From a virus (taxonomy: Duplodnaviria > Caudoviricetes): a stretch of DNA of 41,945 nucleotides. The translations under genes and the position numbers were made by a program. This document shows, piece by piece, positions 12,560-39,414 of this stretch. A model generated the notes under the pieces. The model had not been told where the DNA came from. It saw only the letters and a list, made by a program, of their open reading frames with translations, and ran no database searches. The stretch lies in IMG/VR virus record IMGVR_UViG_3300033067_000427, positions 1 through 41,945 of that record; one strand, written 5' to 3'. The number at the start of each line of letters is the position of its first letter. The stretch's first letter is position 1.

Positions 12560-14050
12560 CTAATACCCTGTTGTTCGTGATGCACCCAGCGCTTGCGGGT
12601 CCGGGGTATAGCCATACCCATCTTCTTCATCATACATCGGATTAACTCTTGCTCTATCCAAACCTGAGATCACACAGTAACGCATAGCATCCATCAAGTG
12701 ATCATCCTGCCCATCTGGGATCTTGCCCTTATCGTCTTTATGATAGGTGCGAAATTCATTGAACCAATTCTGACACGTTGCGAAAACTTTAAGTTGTCCG
12801 CACGTTAACATTGTCCAAACCGCTGAAAGCCCTGTCTCAATGGCATTAGAGGCCATAGTTAGGTCTAAACCCAAATCCATGTATTGGTGCAATAAACGTG
12901 TACCATCATCCCTAGATCGGTTAGAAGCTGGATCAATTACACCAGGGATCCATGCTCCCCGCGACTTAATCGCCTGCGCGTGAATAGGAGGTTCATCCCT
13001 TCCAGCGTAGTGTTCCGAGTAAATGTACCATACATTCGAGGATGGATCTTGAGCCATCCATACAGCTGCTGACTTATGCCAGCCAACGTCAAACCCATAG
13101 ACTTTTGGCCAATGGTTTGGAATAGTAAAGGGCTGGACTGTGATATCATTTTCAGATACAGCGAAAATCGCGCCAGCGCCAATCTGTGGGATCCCGCGTG
13201 TTCGAGCATCCCGCATCCAAGGTGGAATAGCTTGTAGCATCTCCGCCTTTTCTTGCTCAGATAGATGCGGTACATCATCCCAAGTAATTTGTGTTACCCA
13301 TTTGTTGTTCAATGGGTTAACATCCCCCATTGGAAACCTGCCGCCTGGCAAGAACTCCAATACAATCTTTGACAGACCGAACAAAGGTGTGAAAGTACAC
13401 ATAACGCGACCTGCACACTTTTGGCAGACGCGACACTTCATAGTACGCATCAAGCATTCTTGATAGATCTCAGGATCTTTAGGTTCTTCATCGAGACAGA
13501 CCAAATTAATGGCTGTACCCTGCAAAGCTTCGCGGCCTTGCTCATAGGACTTAAACACACCCTCGCTGAACCCATCCTCAATGCCATTAGTAAAATGACG
13601 TACTCGAACGACTAGAATCGCTTCAGGCACACCAGGGCGGTTCGTTGTGCTGATTATCATGTCTTTAGGAATAAGGCCCGAGCCCTTGTCCATAACAGAC
13701 CCAATCAACTCTTCCTGCAAAATACCTTTCGTCGACTCATTACTCTTACCGATAAACCATGCGCTAATCGGGTGCTTGTAGCGATGCCCTGTCCACCAAT
13801 CTGGGTATAGACCAGTAAGGTGCAATGTAGCCTCATACATAGCTGCAAAGGTCTTACCACTACGGTTAGCAGCCACTAGGGCTCTTTCTCGAAAGTCTTT
13901 TCCTGCCGCAAAGAAAGCCATTTGCTTAGTGTACTTGTCTCTACTGAACTCACCTGTAGCTGGGAAAGCCGTGTCGATCTTGTTGTAGCGCTTTCTGCGC
14001 TCGATCTCGGCTAATAGGCTATCTAGTTCTAGTAGCTCCTTATCACTCAT
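12560..14050 (-). CDS. terL: Terminase large subunit
   Basis: Walker A AANRSGKT, Walker B VCLDEEP, TFTP coupling motif, nuclease GFDVG and DDHLMDAMRY. Likely start MSDKEL at 14050 overlaps the TerS stop. Confidence 0.92.
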   Translation of the reverse strand: MSDKELLELDSLLAEIERRKRYNKIDTAFPATGEFSRDKYTKQMAFFAAGKDFRERALVAANRSGKTFAAMYEATLHLTGLYPDWWTGHRYKHPISAWFIGKSNESTKGILQEELIGSVMDKGSGLIPKDMIISTTNRPGVPEAILVVRVRHFTNGIEDGFSEGVFKSYEQGREALQGTAINLVCLDEEPKDPEIYQECLMRTMKCRVCQKCAGRVMCTFTPLFGLSKIVLEFLPGGRFPMGDVNPLNNKWVTQITWDDVPHLSEQEKAEMLQAIPPWMRDARTRGIPQIGAGAIFAVSENDITVQPFTIPNHWPKVYGFDVGWHKSAAVWMAQDPSSNVWYIYSEHYAGRDEPPIHAQAIKSRGAWIPGVIDPASNRSRDDGTRLLHQYMDLGLDLTMASNAIETGLSAVWTMLTCGQLKVFATCQNWFNEFRTYHKDDKGKIPDGQDDHLMDAMRYCVISGLDRARVNPMYDEEDGYGYTPDPQALGASRTTGY

Positions 14051-14507
14051 TTTCGTATGTCGTTCCTGATGATATGCCCAACGCTTTGAGCTTTTCAGCA
14101 ATCTTATGCTGCAATTCTTCCGTACTCAATTGTTGGAGTACATTCATGTTACCGATATTGATCTCGGTCTTAGACGCGTCCGCTACCTTAACTGAACCGA
14201 ATTGACGATCCATCATACTGTTATACAGCTGGGCTTGAATCTCTCGATTCTTTAACATCCCATCTTTGCCTACCTCTTCCCACCAAGACAATGAGAGATC
14301 TTCAGCTAACTCACAGGCATGCTTGAAGTCCGGGTAAGTCTTAATCCACTCGTAATACGTGCTACGGGCAATGCCTATAATAGCACAAGCCCGAGGAATG
14401 GATTCACCATTACACCGGGCGATTTTAATCTTTTCGCAGTAGTCTTCCGTGTATTTGGCAGGCCGACCTATCTTAGTGTCGGTTGCCTTTGGGATTTCTG
14501 TTGACAT
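14043..14507 (-). CDS. terS: Terminase small subunit
   Basis: GRPAKY plus HTH (IGIARSTYYEW...PDF) and WWE; immediately upstream of TerL. Confidence 0.8.
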   Translation of the reverse strand: MSTEIPKATDTKIGRPAKYTEDYCEKIKIARCNGESIPRACAIIGIARSTYYEWIKTYPDFKHACELAEDLSLSWWEEVGKDGMLKNREIQAQLYNSMMDRQFGSVKVADASKTEINIGNMNVLQQLSTEELQHKIAEKLKALGISSGTTYENE

Positions 14508-14781
14508 GTGGCTTTTCCATGAGGTTGAATAGTAATTCTTCTATCCGTTTAATGCTATCATAGACCATCCGTAATTGGACATCCTGTGCTTCCGCATTGT
14601 CATTGATCATCTGTCTTATCTCTGCTTCCGTTTTAATCTCGCTGATCTTGCCCAAGATATGTTTCACTCCGTACATTATCACGCCTCCAAAGGCTGCGAC
14701 AAGGGCACCTATTAGTTTTATTAGTATAGCCTCGCCCATTCCTTGTTCCTCAAATAAGTCCACCAACTTTGAGCAATCCAT
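14473..14781 (-). CDS. Single-TM membrane protein with coiled coil (start may be the internal MGEAIL)
   Basis: Hydrophobic segment ILIKLIGALVAAFGGVIMYGV followed by a charged helix; overlaps terS start. Confidence 0.5.
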   Translation of the reverse strand: MDCSKLVDLFEEQGMGEAILIKLIGALVAAFGGVIMYGVKHILGKISEIKTEAEIRQMINDNAEAQDVQLRMVYDSIKRIEELLFNLMEKPHVNRNPKGNRH

Positions 14782-14830
14782 GCCCGGGTGTCGGTGGCAA
14801 CCTTTCTGTTGATTAGCTCCTAAGGCATCC

Positions 14831-15293
14831 TACATAGTGCCGGAGTTCATCCGGTTTCGGCCCTCAGTGCTATGCTGTTGTGGGTAAAGTAGAGCTGTTT
14901 ATTAAAGTGGCCGCTGACTACATGTGCCACTATCTGTCAACCCATAAAACCACCCCGCAGGGGGCTGGGCGGAATGACGCTTTCGCATTAAGGCATAGTG
15001 CCATCAGTCGCTGCAGATTCTTAAAATTAGGCCTGGACTTTATTTCACCTCGCTCCAGGCGCGAGGACACGCCACTGCGACTCGAAAGTCCGTGGCCCAC
15101 TCTAGCACGGCCCCTACTATGAGGCTCGGTGAGCAGAAAGTATTCAATGGGCTTTTTTAAGGTTGAGCCCAAACAACCTTTACCTTGTCTCTGGGTGTTC
15201 CTTCCGCACGAAGGCGTCTAGTACTTCGGGGAAACAGCGGCAACATACAGATCCTAGGGTAGCGACCGTACAAAGCATAGTAATCTACCTATG
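14831..15293 (-). ncRNA. Candidate large structured ncRNA (pseudoknot-rich)
   Basis: Own sigma70-type promoter; long-range end pairing (15270-15280 with 14870-14881); at least two clear H-type pseudoknots; no credible ORF. Confidence 0.6.
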
Positions 15294-15298
15294 TACTT

Positions 15299-15327
15299 AA
15301 AGTAGCATAGGTTTCTTACTATGTCAA
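15299..15327 (-). promoter_or_regulatory. sigma70-type promoter
   Basis: TTGACA-17 bp-TACTTT with extended -10 TG. Confidence 0.7.
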
Positions 15328-15373
15328 GCTTTATTTACATTTTCAGTAAATAAAAATTTAGCCAATTGTTTTA

Positions 15374-15496
15374 TTAGTGCAGAACGACTAACAACACAAC
15401 TACAGCGACTACAGCTGCGACGATTGGGTGTGCTGCAGCTACTGCTACTACACGGTCCACCACATCTTTAACTACTGCGATTACTTTAGCGATCAT
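15374..15496 (-). CDS. Small hydrophobic protein in the lysis cassette (40 aa)
   Basis: MIAKVIAVVKDVVDRVVAVAAAHPIVAAVVAVVVLLVVLH; starts 1 nt after the amidase stop; GGTGAGG SD. Confidence 0.6.
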   Translation of the reverse strand: MIAKVIAVVKDVVDRVVAVAAAHPIVAAVVAVVVLLVVLH

Positions 15497-15497
15497 A

Positions 15498-15995
15498 TTA
15501 AACCTCACCATGTCCAAGAAACTCTAGACCGACTGCTTTCGCAATACGATCCATATAGACCTTATCGATCGACAGACTAAAACCATTACTGGGCTCACCT
15601 GGCCATCGAGGGTCAACTTTACCAGCGTGACTCGCATGTTTGTGGCAAGTTATCTGGATAATATCAGGCCCTAAGGGCTTAATTCGTGTATTAACTAACT
15701 CAATCAGTGCCTGCACTTGCACTTCACTTACTGGGGGTGCATCTCCACCACCAACGAAGGAGACTCCTACGGTATCGCGATTGTAGTCCTTTGCATGCCA
15801 CATCATAGTTGTAGGCTTAGCGTACTCATGGCAATCACCATTACGATCGATCATGTAGTGATAACCTAAGCCCCTTTGCTTGAGCGTAGCCTCGGCCCCG
15901 CCTAAATTCGGTCCGGCGGTGTCGTGGAGGATGATCAGATAGGGCTCTTGAGGCCCGTGTGAGGGGAGGACCCCTAGTTTGTTGACTAATTTCAT
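15498..15995 (-). CDS. Endolysin, N-acetylmuramoyl-L-alanine amidase (Amidase_2)
   Basis: IILHDTAG, GYHYMID..G, WHA..YN...GV, H and K.DP zinc-amidase motifs. Confidence 0.9.
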   Translation of the reverse strand: MKLVNKLGVLPSHGPQEPYLIILHDTAGPNLGGAEATLKQRGLGYHYMIDRNGDCHEYAKPTTMMWHAKDYNRDTVGVSFVGGGDAPPVSEVQVQALIELVNTRIKPLGPDIIQITCHKHASHAGKVDPRWPGEPSNGFSLSIDKVYMDRIAKAVGLEFLGHGEV

Positions 15996-17401: not shown

Positions 17402-17430
17402 AGTATAGCACATTCTATTCCATTTGTCAA
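17402..17430 (-). promoter_or_regulatory. sigma70-type promoter (phage early consensus)
   Basis: TTGACA-17 bp-TATACT followed by GTAATCA, as in the plus-strand early promoters. Confidence 0.75.
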
Positions 17431-17703
17431 GTACTTAGGGGTAACTATGTATTCAGTAGAATCAAGCACTTACAGCACCCCCACTAAAAAGCATATATTT
17501 GCCCATAGTAAGCAGGCACATTGAGACATACATATAATAAACCTTACGTAACCACACCTATGTTTAAACCTAATTGGAGGGCCGTGGTTGAAAGAAAGAA
17601 CCCATAGGCCTAACTATAGTTAAGGGGGTGGAGGATTTATTCAATCATATTGACCTAGTAGCCCCACAGTTATGTTGTGGCGGGGCACATTGATTTTATC
17701 TCG

Positions 17704-17799
17704 AAATGGGGGTGAAATATTAACAAAATCTTAAGTGTTTCTTAAGAATTTAAGATTTCCTTAAGAATTCTCTGAATTTTAACCCATAAATGGGGGTGA
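17704..17799. repeat. 12-bp direct repeat AAATGGGGGTGA flanking an AT-rich tract with four TTAAG units
   Basis: Copies at 17704-17715 and 17788-17799; (C)TTAAG units lie between them. Confidence 0.6.
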
Positions 17800-18472
17800 G
17801 TGGGTACCTTTTAGCACATTAATAGGGCCATAGCTATACTGGGTACATGCGTGTATGTATGATAAGACATAATGTATGGTTATGTACCTATATGTATGTG
17901 TGATAGTAGTTAGTGTTGTATGCATCATAGGCATTTATGCTGCAATACAGGTAGAGTGCTATGCACTATATGCCTTTAAACTGAATTGAATGCCCGCACA
18001 GGCCGAAGGCCGAGCATCGCCCCCATGAATGGGCTTTAAACCGATTCTGAGGGGGCTGTGGGGCGTTTAGACACCTGGGTAGTAGGGTAGCCAGGGGTAA
18101 GGGCGTTTCACGCCTTAGACACGCTCAGATTAAGGAAAATAGGAACACAATAATTAAGACTAAGAACTATAATACCTGCGCAGTGTACCAGCAGGTTATA
18201 ACGACGAACCGATGGATATTCCTCGATGTTCGCTCTGCGGATATCGATCTTCGGATCGGTGAGTCATACGCTGGAATCTTCCTCACCGTTGGTTACAATA
18301 CAATTTCTCTGTGTTTAATCCCTATATAACTTGATCAGTAAGATTCTAGGTTAAAACGACGATATACGTATATTACCTGATATGTGTCTCCATAGCGTAT
18401 GTTTACTGTGTTCTAGCCTAGTGTTACGTTACAAAACATTACAGATTGATACGTATACACATTTCTGTTGCC

Positions 18473-18501
18473 TTGACATTACGTCATTCATATACTATAC
18501 T
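18473..18501 (+). promoter_or_regulatory. sigma70-type early promoter
   Basis: TTGACA-17 bp-TATACT. Confidence 0.75.
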
Positions 18502-18602
18502 GTATACATGGTTAAGGCATAAGCACATGCTCTTAGTCGACAGCTACGCGAGTAGCAATAGGTACAGCTGTTACTGTACGACAACAAGCGGGGAAAGTCA
18601 AT

Positions 18603-20441: not shown

Positions 20442-20681
20442 ATGGCTGACCAACGAGGAATAGAGCAGGAACTAGACAGCTTACACATGGATCTCATGCG
20501 TCTAGCGTACCATGTACGCATAGTCCAGACGCAGCTAGATACAGCTAAGGATGTCTTGGATACAGCTAAGGTGTCATATGCTGCCATACTGAATCACGTA
20601 CTTGGCACGGATGTGCCAGTGGACAGACCTAAAGCAGTAGCGTCAAATACTAAGCCCATGCGGCAAGGGGATGTGTATTAG
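20442..20681 (+). CDS. Small coiled-coil hypothetical protein
   Basis: AAGGAG SD; LDTAK tandem repeat. Confidence 0.55.
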   Translation: MADQRGIEQELDSLHMDLMRLAYHVRIVQTQLDTAKDVLDTAKVSYAAILNHVLGTDVPVDRPKAVASNTKPMRQGDVY

Positions 20682-21240
20682 TATGCTAGATCAAAGTGTC
20701 AAATATTACCACAACTACCTCGCCAAAGTCGCCCGACAAATGGGCGGGGGATTTAGACGTGAGGATTTGATACAGGCTGGCTGGGTGGGTCTGCTGGAAG
20801 CTAAGGCCAGATACAAGCCTGAGTATGGTGTGCCACTCACAGCCTATGCAGCCAAAGATATACGTGGTAGGATGTTAGAGACCATCGCTAAGGTGTCAGG
20901 GGCCGTATCAGTGCCCGTCAAAGTGTACCGTACCAATGACACAGCTAGGACCAACAGCAGGGCTGTACCACTCATAGACGAGGTACATTGGGCCCATAGA
21001 CCAGGCACAGCCAATCCGCTGTTTGAAATCATGGAGCAGGATGAAGAGTTGTCCCAAAGACTCAAATTGCGTAGTATGTTGTCCCAATTAGAGTATCGGG
21101 ACAGAAAGATCATATCCGATAGATGGCTAGGTGAAGAGACTAAGACACTAGAAACCTTAGGCTATGAACTAGGTGTGTCAGCAGAGCGTGTGAGACAGTT
21201 AGAATTACGTGTGCTCGGTAATATGAGGGAGACTGTATGA
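20671..21240 (+). CDS. Phage sigma70-family sigma factor, RpoH (sigma32)-like
   Basis: Region 2 EDLIQAGWVGLLEAKARYKPEYGVPLTAYA; region 4 L..RDR.II..RWL.E..KTL..LG.ELGVSAERVRQLE, where GVSAERVRQLE matches enterobacterial RpoH. Confidence 0.85.
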   Translation: MCISMLDQSVKYYHNYLAKVARQMGGGFRREDLIQAGWVGLLEAKARYKPEYGVPLTAYAAKDIRGRMLETIAKVSGAVSVPVKVYRTNDTARTNSRAVPLIDEVHWAHRPGTANPLFEIMEQDEELSQRLKLRSMLSQLEYRDRKIISDRWLGEETKTLETLGYELGVSAERVRQLELRVLGNMRETV

Positions 21241-26013: not shown

Positions 26014-26247
26014 ATGTCAGAAGTAGTAGTAGCCTTTGTAAAGTATAAGGAAATGCGCGGTAAGATTGACGCACTGACCGACGAGCAACTGTTCCAAATG
26101 CGGTTGCTGTTATTAGAAAATGAGAACATAGACCTCAAGTCACCTGAATGGGGCACATGGATAGATACGAACCGAGTAGAACAAGAGCCAGTCAGGCCGG
26201 GTGCAGAGATCTTTAACATTAAAAACTATGTGAGGAAGGTAAAATGA
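26014..26247 (+). CDS. Hypothetical protein
   Basis: 77 aa; first ORF after the 25936 promoter. Confidence 0.55.
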   Translation: MSEVVVAFVKYKEMRGKIDALTDEQLFQMRLLLLENENIDLKSPEWGTWIDTNRVEQEPVRPGAEIFNIKNYVRKVK

Positions 26248-27017
26248 TCAGCGAAAACACATTAGCGTACTTGCGACATAAACTGGCTGTAGTGGTGTTT
26301 GGTGTAGCGATACCTGTGGTCTTATTCTTTAACGCATACCCAGGTGGTGTGCATGAAATGGTGGAGAGGGTTAAGTTCAGCTATCGGATGGGCGGGATAC
26401 ACAAGACCGTGAGAGTTGTGTTGCACGAAGAATTCGGTGGATTACAAACAGATGATTATGTCAATGCTGTTCGTACCATTGAAAATGCCCCAGCTGATAC
26501 ACGGGTATTGGTGGTAGTGAAGGAGAACTTTGGTGGTGATGTATCACTGTTGTTACCAATCATGGAAGCTGCTCAAAAGAGTACAGCTGTGGTAGTTTTA
26601 ACAGTGCAACGCTTCGGATTCAGCTGTGGTGGAGATATCATTCTGAGTGGTGACTATGCTATCATCCCAAACGACAGCTTGTTAATGTACCACACTGGCC
26701 AATTTAATGGTACCACAGTAAAAGAGCCAACTCTGTTTACACCTGCGTACATGAAGTGGGCATATCAAGTAGTTAACTTATTGACGTCTCCATATAAAGC
26801 TTGGATGACCAGTGAGGAACGTGAAAAGTTCAAGACTGGTGCATCAATCTGGATTACGGGTGGTGAGCTGTGCAGTAAGCGTGATGGTAGAGATGTAGAT
26901 GTATTGTTCCAATATGACGGCGGTTGCGTCATTAAAGGTAACAAGCCAGGGTACTTAGAGGTCTTAGAGCGAGTTGAGGCTATGATCAACGCAGAAGTTG
27001 CTTCAAAACATAACTAG
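26244..27017 (+). CDS. Membrane-anchored ClpP/crotonase-fold serine peptidase
   Basis: N-terminal TM; NFGGDV oxyanion loop, GFSCGGDIILSGD (catalytic Ser) and SLLMYH (His). Confidence 0.7.
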   Translation: MISENTLAYLRHKLAVVVFGVAIPVVLFFNAYPGGVHEMVERVKFSYRMGGIHKTVRVVLHEEFGGLQTDDYVNAVRTIENAPADTRVLVVVKENFGGDVSLLLPIMEAAQKSTAVVVLTVQRFGFSCGGDIILSGDYAIIPNDSLLMYHTGQFNGTTVKEPTLFTPAYMKWAYQVVNLLTSPYKAWMTSEEREKFKTGASIWITGGELCSKRDGRDVDVLFQYDGGCVIKGNKPGYLEVLERVEAMINAEVASKHN

Positions 27018-30888: not shown

Positions 30889-31488
30889 ATGGCAACACCA
30901 ACAGAAAATGAAACTGGCTTGAATGATGCACTGGAGAATGAGAGCTTCTCAATAAGCATCCGAAGGGATGAAATCATTGCGGTAGATATCACGTTATCCA
31001 CTGAGGTGAACCTGTCGTTCCAGTATGAGAAATTATTCGCGACTCTGCGATCCCTACCACAGAACTGCACGACAGTGAACTTGTTCTTGGCTAGCTTTGG
31101 CGGTTATATGCAGGGTCTAGTGCCACTGTTCAACGCCTTCAAGTATTGCCAGGTACCAGTAGATGTGTATGTCACTGGTGAGTGCTACAGCGCAGGGGCT
31201 ATGCTGGCATTGTCAGGGCGGTCTTTGACCATGATGCCTAACACTATGCTGATGTTCCATAATTCCAGCGGTGGTGAGTTCGGCAAGGGCAATGAACTGT
31301 ATGACGCAGTAATGCACGGCACCAAGCACACACGCGGTGTATTCAAGAACATGGTGACTCCGTTCCTGTCTAACGCGGAGCTAGAAGGGTTGATGCACGA
31401 CAAGGATACGTATATCCACTGGGACCAACCTGACTTGCAGAAGAGAATCAGACGACACTTTAACCCAAAGAAGGAGGTAAAGAAATGA
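30889..31488 (+). CDS. ClpP-like serine protease
   Basis: LASFGG, GECYSAGAMLALSG (Ser), MLMFH (His) and G.DTY-like Asp region. Confidence 0.82.
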   Translation: MATPTENETGLNDALENESFSISIRRDEIIAVDITLSTEVNLSFQYEKLFATLRSLPQNCTTVNLFLASFGGYMQGLVPLFNAFKYCQVPVDVYVTGECYSAGAMLALSGRSLTMMPNTMLMFHNSSGGEFGKGNELYDAVMHGTKHTRGVFKNMVTPFLSNAELEGLMHDKDTYIHWDQPDLQKRIRRHFNPKKEVKK

Positions 31489-34011: not shown

Positions 34012-34715
34012 TGTCATACGTATATTTAGCGAGTCCGTATTCAGATCCTAGCGAAGCAGTTCGCTTAGATCGCGAACGCGTTATATCACGAATAGGGTTT
34101 AAACTAATCGCAGACGGCTGGAATGTGTTCTGCCCTATAACTATGTCACATCGTCTCCAAGATCTCCATGATACCGAGGCTCACTTTAGGGCTGACCGCC
34201 GAGAGATTACCCACGAAGAGTGGATGAGGGTTGACTACAGTATGCTGGAGCATGCTAGCAAACTGTTAGTCGCGAAGTTAGATGGATGGGATACTAGTCG
34301 CGGTGTGCTCTTAGAGATCGAGTATGCGCGCAAGCACGGTAAACCAATACTGTACTTAGATACTAAGGGGGAAGTAGTGAGCATCGAGCAAGTGCCTACA
34401 GTTGAGGCAGGTATTAAAGATTCGGTAGGGAAAGCTCCCCTATCATTGATTCCATATGAAGCACTAGAGGCCATTGCCCGAGTGCGTGAGTATGGGAATC
34501 AAAAATATAAAAGTCCATCTATATGGAGAGGGCATCCAGAAAAGCACGGAGAATTCGTAGAGGCGGCCATGCGTCACATCGCTAAGTACAACGATGCGAG
34601 GCTATATGGCTTAAGATCTACTAATGATGAGGAATCGGGAATAGATCACTTGGACCACGCAATCACATCACTGGCATTGGCTATAGCCTTAAGGGGAGAT
34701 ACAACGCATGAGTAA
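34011..34715 (+). CDS. Fusion of a DUF1937/nucleoside deoxyribosyltransferase-like domain and a DUF5664 dATP/dGTP diphosphohydrolase-like domain
   Basis: N-terminal YLASPYS..FCPI..SH..W...D..GWDTSRGV..EIEYA; C-terminal KD..GK..LSLIP..GNQKY..W..AAMRH..DEESG..HL.HA. Likely GTG start at 34011. Confidence 0.75.
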   Translation: MSYVYLASPYSDPSEAVRLDRERVISRIGFKLIADGWNVFCPITMSHRLQDLHDTEAHFRADRREITHEEWMRVDYSMLEHASKLLVAKLDGWDTSRGVLLEIEYARKHGKPILYLDTKGEVVSIEQVPTVEAGIKDSVGKAPLSLIPYEALEAIARVREYGNQKYKSPSIWRGHPEKHGEFVEAAMRHIAKYNDARLYGLRSTNDEESGIDHLDHAITSLALAIALRGDTTHE

Positions 34716-36621
34716 AGCAGTTAATAAGTTCAAGGACAAGTTCGCCTCGAAGAAGCGAGAGGTGTTGACTATGTCTGAGTACTTGGAGAAAATCAAGACA
34801 GACCCGTCACTGTACGCTACGCCAGCAGAGCGTCTGCTGAAAGCTATTGGTGAACCCACGGTCTTAGATACTGCTAAGGATGAACGCCTTGGGCGAATCC
34901 ATGGCAATCGTCTTATCCGTACGTACAAACCATTTGAAGAAATCTATGGTATTGAGCGTGTTGTAGAAGAGATCGTATCTTTCCTACGCCATAGTGCTCA
35001 GAACCTAGAAGAATCAAAGCAGATCCTATACTTCCTTGGGCCGGTCGGTTCAGCAAAGTCTACGATTGCTGTCATATTAAAAGAGCTGATGGAACAAGAA
35101 CCCATCTATGTCCTTCAGGGTGCCCCCATGCAAGAGTCGCCCTTGGACTTCTTCCGCCCTAGTGACGCGAAGGATCTTGGAATACCAGCCCGCTATTTAG
35201 GTAAGACGACCTCTTCATGGGCGTTAAAGCGTCTTGAGGAATTCGAGGGTGACATCACTAAGTTTAAGGTCGAGAAGATCTTCCCTAGTGAGGCTCGTCA
35301 GATTGCATTGGGTGTAGTGGTAGCAGGTGATGAAGCTACCCAGGATATCTCTACCATCGTAGGTAAAGTAAACATTCGCGCCTTGGAACATTTCCCAGCG
35401 GATGATCCTGATGCATACAGCTACTCCGGTGGTCTGTGCCGTGGTAACCAAGGTATGATGGAATTCATTGAGATGTTCAAGGCTGACCCTAAGATCTTGC
35501 ATCCCCTGTTGACTGCTACCCAAGAAAAGAACTTTAAAGGTACCGAGGCTCTGTCGTCTATGCCGTTCCATGGTATCATCATGGCGCACAGTAATGAGAC
35601 AGAGTGGGCTCAGTTCCGCTCTAACAAAGCTAATGAAGCGTTCTTAGATCGAGTCTACTTGGTTAAGGTTCCCTACTGCTTACGTATCAACGAAGAGGTA
35701 GAGATCTACAAGAAGATGCTGCGTGGCAGTGAGTTGAGTGAAGCTCCGGTAGCACCTGGTACCTTAGAAATGCTTGCGTCATTCTCAGTGTTAAGCCGTA
35801 TCGAGAATCCTGAGAACTCAAGCTTGATCACTAAGGCGCACGTGTACAATGGTGAAGCATACAAAGATAAAGACGTAGAAGCTAAGTCTCTGTTAGAGTA
35901 CCGGGAAGAGGCCAGTCAGCAAGAGGGTTTCAGCGGACTGTCTACACGTGAAGCGTTCAAGTTACTGTCGAGGGTATTCAACTTCGATTACACCGAGATT
36001 GGTGCTAATGCTGTGCACTTGATGACAGTACTGGATCAAAGCATCGTCGATTTGTTCCAAGGTGAAGATGATCAGACTGTGGCTCGATCTATCTTGAACG
36101 AAGTGTTGAAAGAGGACTACTACCAACTGATCTCTAAAGACATTCAGACAGCGTACTTAGACAGCTATCATGCATATGGTCAAAGCTTGTTTGATCGGTA
36201 CTTGCTGAATGCTGACAACTGGATCCAACAACGTGGGTACAGAGATGTTGAAACTGGGCAAATGCTCGATCTTAAGACACTGGATACTGAGTGCTCTAAG
36301 CTAGAAAAACCAGCTGGCATTACTAACCCTAAAGACTTCCGTAATGAAGTCGTTACCTTCTGCTTGCGCTACAGAGGTAAGCATGGTGGGCAGAATCCAG
36401 ATTGGACCGACCATGAGCAAATCAAGAACGTGATCGAGAAGACCATGTTCGAGAAGACTGAGGATCTTATCCCAGTGATCTCTTTCGGTAAGAAGGGTTC
36501 ACCTGAAGAGGAAGAGAACCATAAGAAGTTTGTTCAGCGGATGAAAGACAGGGGCTATACCGAGAAGCAGATTCGTCTGCTGGTACAATGGCAAATGCAG
36601 TATCAGAAGTCTAAAGAGTAA
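34708..36621 (+). CDS. yeaG: PrkA/YeaG family AAA+ serine kinase/ATPase
   Basis: LEESKQILYFLGPVGSAKS, DISTIVGKV, DDPDAYSYSGGLCRGNQG..EFIEMFKA, AHSNE, NEAFLDR, VPYCL and PKDFRNEVV; full-length 637 aa. Confidence 0.93.
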   Translation: MSKAVNKFKDKFASKKREVLTMSEYLEKIKTDPSLYATPAERLLKAIGEPTVLDTAKDERLGRIHGNRLIRTYKPFEEIYGIERVVEEIVSFLRHSAQNLEESKQILYFLGPVGSAKSTIAVILKELMEQEPIYVLQGAPMQESPLDFFRPSDAKDLGIPARYLGKTTSSWALKRLEEFEGDITKFKVEKIFPSEARQIALGVVVAGDEATQDISTIVGKVNIRALEHFPADDPDAYSYSGGLCRGNQGMMEFIEMFKADPKILHPLLTATQEKNFKGTEALSSMPFHGIIMAHSNETEWAQFRSNKANEAFLDRVYLVKVPYCLRINEEVEIYKKMLRGSELSEAPVAPGTLEMLASFSVLSRIENPENSSLITKAHVYNGEAYKDKDVEAKSLLEYREEASQQEGFSGLSTREAFKLLSRVFNFDYTEIGANAVHLMTVLDQSIVDLFQGEDDQTVARSILNEVLKEDYYQLISKDIQTAYLDSYHAYGQSLFDRYLLNADNWIQQRGYRDVETGQMLDLKTLDTECSKLEKPAGITNPKDFRNEVVTFCLRYRGKHGGQNPDWTDHEQIKNVIEKTMFEKTEDLIPVISFGKKGSPEEEENHKKFVQRMKDRGYTEKQIRLLVQWQMQYQKSKE

Positions 36622-36636
36622 GTAAGAACGGGAGTT

Positions 36637-36684
36637 TGCTGGTTTCCTCCTCTCCCCCTAAAAACCAGCACTTACATGGGGAGG
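36637..36684 (+). promoter_or_regulatory. Hairpin whose loop is complementary to the yeaH SD (possible pseudoknot)
   Basis: Stem TGCTGGTTT/AAACCAGCA; loop TCTCCCC can pair with GGGGAGG at 36678-36684. Confidence 0.5.
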
Positions 36685-36690
36685 CTGTTG

Positions 36691-37863
36691 ATGACTATCA
36701 TTGTAGATAAACGTAAAGGCATGAAGAATGCCGATGCAGGTAACCGGAAGCGATTCATTGATCGCTGCAAGGATGGCTTGCGTAAAGTCGTAGAGAAAGA
36801 ACTTAAAGATAAGAGCATCAAAGACATTGGTAAAAAGGACATCAAGGTCCGTGATACTACCGGTGTTCTAGATGAGCCCTCCTTCCATAATGATTCCACT
36901 ACCGGCAACGCTCCAGTTGTTCGTGGAAATAATCGTCGCTACCACAAGGGCGACAAGATCCAGTCCTCTTCGGGGGGTCAAGGCCAAGGTTCTAAGGCCA
37001 GCGACGCCATGAAAGAATTCTCGTATACCCTATCCAAGAAAGAGTTTCTCGACATCCTATTCGAAGATATGGCCCTGCCTAATTACGTCAAAGAGTCATT
37101 GACCTCAGATAAGAAGTTCCGTTGGAAGAGAGCCGGTGTGGGCCCTGATGGTCCTATCGTGCGTCTCAACCTGCTGAAGACTATGCTTACCTCCATTGGT
37201 AGAAAGTTCGCCGCTAAGGGTGCTGCCGAAGAAGGCGAGGAAAAGAAAGTTCCCTTCATCACTGAGGAAGATTTACGGTTTAACATTTACACTAAACGAC
37301 CAATCTTCATCCGGCATGCTGTAATATTCGCAGTCATGGATATTTCCGGATCTATGGGCGATGGTGAGAAAGCCCTAGCCAAGCGGTTCTTCCTTCTACT
37401 ATACTTGTTCCTAGAGCGCCAGTACGAATCTGTTGACATTGTCTGGATAATGCACGATACTGAGGCACATGAGGTAACTGAGCAAGTGTTTTTCTCAGAG
37501 ACTTCTGGTGGTGGTACCATTGTGTCGTCTGCGTACGAGATGGTTAACAAGATCCTAAACGAACGCTACGATGTCACTAAGACCAACGTGTACATGGCAC
37601 AGTGTAGTGATGGCGACAACTTTGAGGACGAGACTGGATTGATCGAGTACTTGGAAAAGAACATCATTCCTAAGGTGCAGTACCTAGCTTATTTGCAGGT
37701 GCAAGAGCAGGCCAATAGCTGGCGCATGCCTAATATAGGCTTACTAAGGATGTTTGACACGGCTTTTCGTGGCACGCTTAAGGTAGGTTATGGGTTTGCC
37801 TCAACACTAGATGAAGTGTTCCCAGTGCTCAAGCATTTGTTTCGTAAGGGGAGGGAAGAGTAG
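36691..37863 (+). CDS. yeaH: YeaH/YhbH (DUF444) vWA-domain protein
   Basis: IIVD.R...N.KRFI, EP.F, LFEDM.LP, PFI...DLRF, MIDAS-like MDISGSM, AKRFF.LLYLFL, ETSGGGT.VSSA and SDGDN; start MTIIVD after GGGGAGG. Confidence 0.92.
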   Translation: MTIIVDKRKGMKNADAGNRKRFIDRCKDGLRKVVEKELKDKSIKDIGKKDIKVRDTTGVLDEPSFHNDSTTGNAPVVRGNNRRYHKGDKIQSSSGGQGQGSKASDAMKEFSYTLSKKEFLDILFEDMALPNYVKESLTSDKKFRWKRAGVGPDGPIVRLNLLKTMLTSIGRKFAAKGAAEEGEEKKVPFITEEDLRFNIYTKRPIFIRHAVIFAVMDISGSMGDGEKALAKRFFLLLYLFLERQYESVDIVWIMHDTEAHEVTEQVFFSETSGGGTIVSSAYEMVNKILNERYDVTKTNVYMAQCSDGDNFEDETGLIEYLEKNIIPKVQYLAYLQVQEQANSWRMPNIGLLRMFDTAFRGTLKVGYGFASTLDEVFPVLKHLFRKGREE

Positions 37864-39414
37864 ATGTGTAAAGAATTACTATTTTCTGGGCAACATTGGG
37901 ATTTGGAACTTATCGATAAGATCTGGAATCGTATCGAGGAGATCAACAAAGAGAAATACCAGTTGGATTACTTCCCACCCCAAATTGAGGTGGTTACTGC
38001 AAACCAGATGATCCATTACTCGTCTATGCATGGCTTACCTTTTATGTACGATCACTGGTCGTTTGGTAAGGGATATGTAGAGAACCACAAGGCCTACAAC
38101 GCTGGGCAGACTGGCTTAGCCTATGAGATGATCATCAATACTAATCCATCTGTGTGCTACATCATGGAGAACAACGATGCCACTATGCAGGCGTTGGTTC
38201 TAGCCCATGCTGCGATTGGACACAGTTCATTCTTCAAGAACAACTATGGGTTCAAGACCTGGACATCCCCTGACACTGTGTTGACATATGCGAAATTCGC
38301 GAAGGAGTATGTAGCTGAATGCGAGAAGCTATATGGTCCTGAGGCTGTAGAAAAGATCCTAGATGCAGCTCACTCACTACAGTTCAATGGTATTGATCGG
38401 TATGTTCGCACCAGGGAACTACGCGATACTAAGATGGATGAAATGAAGGAAGAGCTAGCCAGGTACCAAGCCATGCTAGATGATCCCGTCTGGAGAACTA
38501 TCCCTGCGAAAGCCCATAGAAAGGAAGATAAGACCTCATTGTTTCCTTGGCCATTCCCAGAAGAAAACTTACTGTACTTCATTGAGAAGAACAGCCCAGG
38601 CCTAGAGAAGTGGCAGCGTGAACTCGTTCGCATCGTGCGTTACTTTGCACAGTACTTCTACCCACAGATTCAGACTAAACTGATGAATGAAGGGTGGGCC
38701 AGTTTCTGGCATTACACTCTAATGACTGACCTCCATGAGGAAGGGTCCATCTCTGATGCGAGTATGCTGTCATTCTTACAAAGTCACACCTCTGTCTGCA
38801 ATCAGCCGCAGCCGAAGACTCGTACGATGGATGGCAAGGTAGTTGACGTACTGACGTCCTCTATAAACCCCTATGCCTTAGGGTATAAGATGTTCAAGCG
38901 CTTGCGACAGGCGTGTGAGAATCCTACAGAAGCGGACTACAAAGAGTTGCCGACGATATGCAATACGAATTGGATAGAGACCTTGAAAGGTATAGCTGAG
39001 GATTACAATGACTCAACATTCATAGGGCAGTTCCTCACCTCTGACCTGGTAGAAGAGTTCGGGTTCTTGATTCTTAAGCCGGCTGTGCCGGATAGGATCG
39101 AAGCTAAGTTCAAGATAAAGAAAGTTCAGGTAACTGAAGTACAAGATAAAGATAAACTGAGCGCAATTCGTAAGCAACTAGCCGAACAGTACGCATTCGG
39201 ATCTAAGTTTCCTACGATAGAAGTAGTGGACTATGATGTTAAAGGGGATAGGTCATTGACTTTGCTCCATAGACCCTATAACATGCAAGTATTGGAGGAA
39301 GAGACTGCCATGGCATGTATGAAGAGTTTGACCAAGCTATGGGGGTATCCAGTTCGGTTACGGACAATCGATGAAGATGGTGAAGAGATCACCAGATCAC
39401 GACGACATTTTTAA
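37864..39414 (+). CDS. ycgB: SpoVR/YcgB family protein
   Basis: HWSFGK, GLAYEMIINTNP, QALVLAHAAIGHSSFFKNN, PEENLLYFIEK, YFYPQ.QTKLMNEGWASFWH and INPYALG. Confidence 0.93.
   Translation: MCKELLFSGQHWDLELIDKIWNRIEEINKEKYQLDYFPPQIEVVTANQMIHYSSMHGLPFMYDHWSFGKGYVENHKAYNAGQTGLAYEMIINTNPSVCYIMENNDATMQALVLAHAAIGHSSFFKNNYGFKTWTSPDTVLTYAKFAKEYVAECEKLYGPEAVEKILDAAHSLQFNGIDRYVRTRELRDTKMDEMKEELARYQAMLDDPVWRTIPAKAHRKEDKTSLFPWPFPEENLLYFIEKNSPGLEKWQRELVRIVRYFAQYFYPQIQTKLMNEGWASFWHYTLMTDLHEEGSISDASMLSFLQSHTSVCNQPQPKTRTMDGKVVDVLTSSINPYALGYKMFKRLRQACENPTEADYKELPTICNTNWIETLKGIAEDYNDSTFIGQFLTSDLVEEFGFLILKPAVPDRIEAKFKIKKVQVTEVQDKDKLSAIRKQLAEQYAFGSKFPTIEVVDYDVKGDRSLTLLHRPYNMQVLEEETAMACMKSLTKLWGYPVRLRTIDEDGEEITRSRRHF

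Follow-up and report, generated by a model that had tools for sequence, protein, structure and literature searches.

The window analysed here, the whole 41,945-base record of an uncultured freshwater phage, carries on its minus strand, between the lysis cassette and the terminase genes, an element (15295-14831) that is very probably a real structured non-coding RNA element. The tentatively preferred explanation is a stand-alone RNA from a new small family of structured phage RNAs, which would be released from the late transcript by cleavage and would serve in trans as scaffold or decoy. An earlier note on this DNA had proposed a new promoter-driven, pseudoknotted phage ncRNA at this place. Its non-coding nature, its conservation, the compensating changes and the lack of an Rfam match bear out that proposal, while the likeness to tmRNA suggested with it was not upheld. 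The sequencing runs used for comparison were river, freshwater sediment and wastewater metagenomes. Despite a CheckV completeness figure of 26%, the window is probably most of the phage genome, since G001, the closest complete relative, measures 47.2 kb.

On the minus strand, the holin and amidase genes and a 40-aa hydrophobic ORF are followed by the element, an 88-aa ORF, terS, terL, the portal gene and the major capsid gene (Table 1). The ribosome-binding site of the 88-aa ORF is situated about 80 nt past the end-closing stem P1, and about 130 nt past it in G001. Elsewhere in the window, three large genes are located at 34708-39414 (+), a block that is unusual for a phage of about 45 kb. The first encodes a YeaG/PrkA-type kinase (55% to YeaG), while its two neighbours belong to PHROG families 19072 and 35217, one of them with a sporulation-protein match; the third gene has relatives in G001-G003. 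The block presumably resembles the yeaG-yeaH-ycgB cluster. A phage sigma-70 family factor and two ClpP-like proteases are encoded at 20671-21240, 26244-27017 and 30889-31488 (+).

Table 1. Features of the RNA element and its surroundings in the window
Feature	Position	Strand	Basis
Structured ncRNA of about 465 nt, with putative ends at the closing stem	14831..15295	-	Conservation, compensating changes, no Rfam match
P1 end-closing stem, 5' strand (partner 14837-14831)	15289..15295	-	Pair probability 0.95
UCGCUAC motif, common to G001; likely partner GUAG-R-G at 15117-15112	15259..15265	-	Motif order test
Domain closed by helix 15207-15200/15140-15133, contains pseudoknot A	15133..15207	-	Pairs kept in L002
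Pseudoknot A (H-type): loop 1 rich in U, loop 3 rich in A	15148..15180	-	Strict H-type scan
Hairpin GCCAC/GUGGC with UUCG-capped inner stem	15071..15096	-	2 two-sided changes in L002
Pseudoknot B (H-type): loop 1 of 1 nt, loop 3 rich in A	15031..15066	-	Strict H-type scan
Variable domain closed by helix 15018-15014/14936-14932, replaces third pseudoknot	14932..15018	-	2 two-sided changes (L002)
3' strands of candidate long-range helices	14883..14910	-	L002: one one-sided, one two-sided change
3' signature: GAAA, CCGG-loop-CCGG hairpin, CAC, UAUGUA	14831..14858	-	22 identical bases in G001
Sigma70-type promoter: TTGACA, 17 nt, TG-N-TACTTT	15299..15327	-	Boxes kept in L002
A+T-rich tract 5' of -35 box, UP-element-like (inferred)	15328..15375	-	19% G+C vs 46% genome
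40-aa hydrophobic ORF, end of lysis cassette, upstream neighbour	15374..15496	-	Translation; kept in L002
Amidase endolysin, upstream neighbour	15498..15995	-	PHROGs amidase/endolysin match
Holin	16413-15997	-	PHROGs match
88-aa small hydrophobic ORF, first gene downstream	14473..14739	-	Homolog in G001
terS 14507-14043 and terL 14101-12560, packaging/head operon start	12560..14507	-	PHROGs

Two 80-aa ORFs lie on the element, one of which the earlier note had weighed as a possible product. No PHROG match was obtained for either, and gaps and stops break both in L002, a contig from a close relative (TerL 92%) in which no frame of the element stays open for more than 71 aa; the element is therefore non-coding, as the note had preferred. 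In L002 it keeps 382 of 465 bases (82%), with several indels. Within the core (15175-15031) 137 of 145 bases are identical, an identity above that of third codon positions in the neighbouring genes (114/166, 76/89 and 104/123, or 69-85%), and in the block 15030-14970 just 31 of 61 are.

Long-range pairing of the ends had also been proposed, and both helices are present. The outer one, P1, is longer than claimed: UACAUAG (15295-89) pairs with CUAUGUA (14837-31) over 7 bp with a mean pair probability of 0.95, and six of the seven pairs are kept in L002. The helix 15280/14870 is poorly kept there, with three of seven pairs unchanged, three changed in a wobble-type manner and one broken. The nested folding energy of the element is ordinary (z = -1.18; 17/100 shuffles fold as well), that of the G001 form gives z = -1.32, and nested single-sequence folding assigns a probability close to zero to most of the long-range helices proposed.

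A strict scan for H-type pseudoknots in the 475-nt region returned two, A and B, exactly those drawn in the earlier note (15180-15148 and 15066-15031). After dinucleotide shuffling of the region, two pseudoknots occurred in none of 300 sequences and one in seven, and the same scan found three in the remaining 41 kb or so of the window, both strands included. Pseudoknot B is identical in L002 and thus conserved without covariation; in stem 1 of pseudoknot A, a G-C pair becomes A-U in L002 and in X6, a partial third variant, in a register set by eye. The weaker third pseudoknot of the note (UGAC/GUCA with AGUGGC/GCCACU) was rejected because two of its four UGAC/GUCA pairs break in L002, where these bases keep another helix. 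The description of the terminal hairpin as T-arm-like failed as well, because its loop is a UUUA tetraloop in L002 and G001.

Of the 54 pairs of the earlier model, 42 are unchanged in L002 under automatic alignment, four show one-sided and none two-sided changes, and eight are broken; two of these eight belong to stem 1 of pseudoknot A, for which the register set by eye gives the A-U replacement instead. A revised model of 16 helices (93 pairs) shows six two-sided and six one-sided changes in L002, with two pairs broken and two at alignment gaps. Sliding controls gave no two-sided change, and X6 supplies a further one; the model was built after the differences had been seen, and most of its helices were picked that way. 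When all possible helices of at least 5 bp were enumerated, 14 of 565 had at least one two-sided change and at most one break.

The firmer cases among the compensated helices are the hairpin 15096-15071 and the helices 15207/15133 and 15018/14932. In X6 the hairpin has G-C for A-U at 15093/15074 and keeps its inner stem. All eight pairs of 15207/15133 are kept in L002, with one two-sided and one one-sided change; X6 repeats the two-sided change and keeps the outer four pairs, while two inner pairs are broken. Candidate long-range pairings join 14910-03 with 15104-097, 14894-90 with 15116-12 and 14889-83 with 15184-78. Single-sequence folding does not predict them, and for the helices 15184/14883 and 15104/14903 the comparison sequence is L002. 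Together, these changes point to selection acting on RNA structure, and their tolerance of G-U pairs indicates the minus strand. Covariation in homologues upstream of terS, a check named in the earlier note, was seen to a limited extent, as two-sided changes in L002 and X6, within a set of only three close sequences (two full and a partial third) and with helices mostly picked post hoc.

The proposed promoter TTGACA-17-TACTTT is present at 15327-15299, with TTGACA at 15327-15322, a 17-nt spacer and TACTTT at 15304-15299. L002 keeps TTGACA, the spacing and TG-N-TAnnnT, and differs at 5 of the 17 spacer bases; the A+T-rich tract upstream is mostly deleted there. A consensus scanner missed this promoter because its -10 box matches only three of six consensus bases. 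It fits a genome-wide TTGACA-17-TA..T set, of which five members carry tgtg[c/t] before and gtaat after a TATA[C/A]T box. Copies of the TTGACA-17-TATA[C/A]T class recur on both strands at 17430, 18473, 19190, 19966, 21449 and 24431, and surround an ORF-poor, A+T-rich stretch of 1.1 kb (17420-18530) in which the genome terminus or origin may lie. A second promoter, at 16890-16640 (-), matches 11 of 12 consensus bases; between it and a 71-aa CxxC ORF and the holin lies a G+C-rich leader of about 220 nt, which may be structured. No intrinsic terminator follows P1 in any of three homologs (longest T run 2-3), so that a discrete RNA would need 3' processing behind the closing stem. Two metatranscriptome contig sets (X14, X15) contain a relative and cover the RNA partly, at a depth of 2.7-6.7 like the flanking genes; these are assembled contigs, from which expression cannot be ranked nor strand, ends and transcription read.

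The novelty of the family with respect to Rfam, another proposal of the earlier note, was confirmed in a cmscan-type check. The whole window gave no match at E<=1, and over the element only noise was seen (E>=1.7; the region scan gave two matches, E 7.5 and 9.8), with none for the models of group I/II introns, RNase P, phage pRNA or type III antitoxins. Except for the tRNA-like RNA of G001 described below, the matches in the corresponding slots of G001 and of contig L309 were likewise at noise level. Searched by blastn against 50,697 phage records, the RNAs of the window and G001 yielded only matches of 20-51 nt (E 2-8). Among the pattern scans of viral contigs, one returned no match and one returned six, of which one was real (the contig of L002); in 14 of the 64 parts of a viral contig collection none of the 120 matches listed was convincing; and a further scan gave 30 matches with one real, using a pattern gap one base too long for G001-type loops. 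Scanning metagenome and genome contigs with proteins as guides added no homolog; intermediate relatives were represented by their proteins (TerS P0049-P0053 at 39-63%, capsid P0002-P0006 at 61-85%). A 3'-signature model, R1, matched 2 of 104 related records, many of them fragments, both matches being training sequences; among virus records rated at least 90% complete it matched one of 11. The RNA family is thus narrow as far as the searched collections reach. The published literature searched yielded no paper on this RNA. In six supplementary files of PMC10690425, which exclude files 1, 2 and 4, two motifs and two contig names gave no match. The viral RNA catalogue of that study comprises 10,006 candidates, none longer than 151 nt; those in files 1, 2 and 4 could include a fragment of this RNA.

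The distant relative G001 (TerL 51%, portal 46%) shows the gene order holin, amidase, small ORFs, tRNA-Met, an 89-nt tRNA-like RNA, a 285-nt non-coding unit, the homolog of the 88-aa ORF, terS and terL. As in the 465-nt form, the unit is closed by a UACAU/AUGUA stem, and since the ends pair in both forms, the RNA is regarded as one unit and not as loose pieces. Around its loop, the 3' signature reaches a local score of 37, attained by none of 2000 shuffles (mean 20.7). The order UACAU..UCGCUAC..GUAG[AG]G, in motifs chosen by eye from both sequences, was reproduced when the G001 slot was shuffled in 7 of 20000 cases. Neither H-type pseudoknot was found in the unit by the strict scan, and the TTGACA promoter is absent between the two upstream RNA genes and the homolog. 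As the G001 form does without both pseudoknots, the conserved core (closing stem, UCGCUAC, GUAG and GAAA-hairpin-CAC) is small and the pseudoknots are peripheral additions; this core carries 180 nt more in the window than in G001.

The 89-nt RNA of G001 (L150:4189-4277) has the topology of the tRNA-like domain of tmRNA, with the messenger part absent. Its acceptor carries G3.U70 and A73, the D stem is missing, and the anticodon arm is replaced by a 7-bp helix with a capped inner helix; a linker of 3 nt and a T-arm are also present. It folds at -35.9 kcal/mol, scores 21.3 bits with the tRNA model and is not matched by the tmRNA model; it is a candidate decoy of SmpB or AlaRS. A tRNA-Met occupies the same slot in G002 (L157:14948-15181), followed by an atypical tRNA-like sequence and more non-coding sequence up to the contig end. 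In the window and L140 no tRNA was found (ARAGORN: 0 in the window).

Contigs L309 (G047) and L154 (G004) fill the slot with other promoter-led non-coding stretches of about 480-570 nt without similarity to the window RNA. At L309:2551-3060, a TTGACA-17-TATTAT promoter precedes a non-coding stretch of some 480 nt that contains long blocks of complementarity and pairings resembling pseudoknots, upstream of a holin-like ORF, a small ORF and terS; no Rfam family matches this stretch, possibly a second uncatalogued RNA. At L154:997-1600, a TTGACA-17-TATAAT promoter is followed by about 570 non-coding nt (z -1.94 for 1030-1400), and a second gap (1920-2310) lies ahead of a small ORF and terS. In G003, a manA-like RNA with its own TTGACA promoter was detected at L153:2140-2357 (43.5 bits, cut-off 55.2, E 5.6e-8).

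The element resembles the ornate phage RNAs in kind, matching none of their families. Their traits, i.e. large size, non-coding nature, and helices and pseudoknots kept by covariation, are found here, as judged from no more than two full and one partial close sequence plus a single distant one; a location beside tRNAs is seen in G001, and no tRNA was detected in the window or L140. With GOLLD (RF02032) and ROOL (RF03087), as portrayed in PMC12286853, it shares a phage origin, a length of several hundred nt, pseudoknots, proximity to tRNA genes (in the G001 form) and a conserved 3' end with a variable interior. In contrast to them, it is smaller (285-465 nt) and so far limited to one narrow clade. 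According to that study, GOLLD and ROOL are found near tRNA islands and form RNA-only cages, and GOLLD env-38, placed 3' of a Met-tRNA and composed of a conserved 3' and a variable 5' region, bound ribosomes in pull-downs. The GOLLD model, including its conserved 3' domain, matched none of five records at E<=10; nor did the ROOL model, which matched no positive control genome, and the full Rfam scans gave no match to it either. In the study on Kayvirus vB_SauM-515A1 (PMC7698491), lncRNA1 and lncRNA2 (525-570 nt) lie beside tRNA genes and rise late in infection; the 570-bp lncRNA, directly after tRNA-Met, accounts for 2.2% of normalised counts. These lncRNAs differ from the RNAs of the window, L002 and G001 in showing no similarity to them (29 to 200 of 200 shuffles reached the same score), and the 3'-motif model did not match them.

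According to the tentatively favoured explanation, the promoter at 15327 would start the late (packaging/head) transcript with the element at its front, and host processing nucleases would cut the RNA free behind the end-closing stem; in the G001 form, the 5' end would be produced by tRNA maturation. The freed RNA could then act in trans, either as a nuclease-resistant scaffold or as a decoy for host RNA-binding machinery, with ribosome-associated or anti-phage RNases as possible targets, and would occupy the genomic slot where related phages keep their tRNAs. A trans-acting scaffold or decoy fits best with the closed ends, the variable peripheral domains, the distance to the ribosome-binding site and the tRNA neighbourhood.

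The main rival, unlikely on balance but deserving attention, is a cis-acting 5' leader of the late operon. Its closed, pseudoknotted fold would shield an mRNA of more than 14 kb encoding packaging, head and tail proteins from 5' attack, or would signal processive antitermination; in G001, the leader would cap the mRNA once the upstream tRNAs have been cut out. The element is always located in sense orientation directly ahead of the small ORF-terS-terL, no terminator stands behind it, and its promoter belongs to the genome-wide class. In addition, a contig of X14 (record 5, 14582-14969) joins the RNA interior to the next gene and would agree with a leader, if it does not stem from DNA. However, the element does not overlap the ribosome-binding site, and its size ranges from 285 to 465 nt around a small core. 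The distant relatives with unrelated non-coding sequences or tRNAs in the slot (G047/L309 and G004/L154) fit a cargo slot instead, and adjacency to tRNAs is typical of trans-acting RNAs (PMC12286853).

It is rather improbable that the element is a patchwork of exchangeable RNA cassettes, in which the terminal module alone would be common to G001 and the pseudoknots would be passengers, possibly RNase decoys. The lack of pseudoknots A and B in G001 and the very variable internal block agree with such a patchwork, and the repeats of ToxI, the RNA of type III antitoxins, are about the size of the two pseudoknots (33-36 nt). Both forms nevertheless share the end stem and the 5', middle and 3' motifs in the same order, and the candidate long-range helices cross modules. 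Moreover, neither pseudoknot repeats the other, and no Rfam family of any kind was matched.

The closed ends around pseudoknots had suggested a likeness to tmRNA (RF00023; permuted RF04321) or a tmRNA/tRNA decoy, and after pseudoknot A there is indeed a short frame whose tandem stops lie within the loop of a hairpin. If the element belonged to a tmRNA-like system that is degenerate or split, pseudoknot A, this six-codon frame with tandem UAG, and pseudoknot B would form the messenger half and would work with a tRNA-like domain on a separate RNA; this reading appears very improbable. The order of pseudoknot, about 11 nt, short frame, stop hairpin and pseudoknot is visible in the sequence, the 89-nt RNA with tRNA-like-domain topology and G3.U70 lies directly upstream of the unit in G001, and the element has a 12-nt identity to E. 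coli tmRNA. This identity occurred in 2/300 shuffles against E. coli alone and is insignificant across 30 tmRNAs (11/100). The tmRNA covariance model matched none of five records at E<=10, and its controls were detected in 14/14 genomes; a profile of the 30 tmRNAs gave no match, and 11/100 shuffles reached the best pairwise score. The acceptor stem (5' GGGG, G3.U70, A73, CCA) is absent from the RNAs of the window, L002 and G001, and the 7-nt T-loop is not kept, UUUA standing in its place in L002 and G001. The frame ends in RAS, not in the LAA or MAA of most real tags compared. The earlier note had itself listed a GGGG 5' end, G3:U70, CCA and an obvious tag as missing. X6 alters the A at -4 of the short frame, the equivalent of A86, which is critical in E. 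coli tmRNA (PMC2481249). Together with the lack of both pseudoknots in the G001 homolog, and of an acceptor-domain RNA in the window and L140, these results leave the tmRNA/tRNA-decoy likeness of this RNA unsupported.

An equally slim chance is given to a two-part attack on ribosome rescue, in which the messenger-less acceptor RNA of G001 would titrate SmpB or alanyl-tRNA synthetase and the ornate RNA would be a separate trans partner, one that may dock on ribosomes or assemble into an RNA-only cage. Such a system, if real, would make up a phage RNA machine of a new class.

Least probable of all is a packaging or virion-associated, pRNA-like RNA, which the earlier note had also offered: the element adjoins terS/terL and would be co-expressed with the head genes, but the phage encodes both TerS and TerL, while pRNA is known from phi29-like motors without a small terminase, no Rfam match was obtained, and most relatives that share the portal type lack the RNA (2/104 with the 3'-motif model, many being fragments). 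Candidate ribozymes were also rejected. The conserved GAAA beside a helix recalls the hammerhead; CUGAnGA is missing in 3/3 homologs, which excludes even the non-circular hammerhead permutations set out in PMC10085705. In the window alone, a GUA-N-AUUAC stretch resembles loop B of the hairpin ribozyme; it is not kept in L002 or G001, the conserved loop A and loop B sequences of this ribozyme are absent, and no Rfam match was obtained. A group II D5 motif was rejected too.

To our knowledge, only a handful of large ornate phage RNAs have been described, none with an assigned function. The present RNA is a new small family within this known kind, and nature provides it in two versions, one of 465 nt and one of 285 nt, both built around a tiny core that is conserved. 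The functional core is therefore directly testable by structure probing, cryo-EM and pull-down. In this group of phages, the slot between lysis and terminase genes holds tRNAs, a mini-RNA resembling the acceptor of tmRNA, and several long non-coding sequences unrelated to one another, contents which point to the use of RNA to manipulate translation or defence of the host at a late stage of infection.
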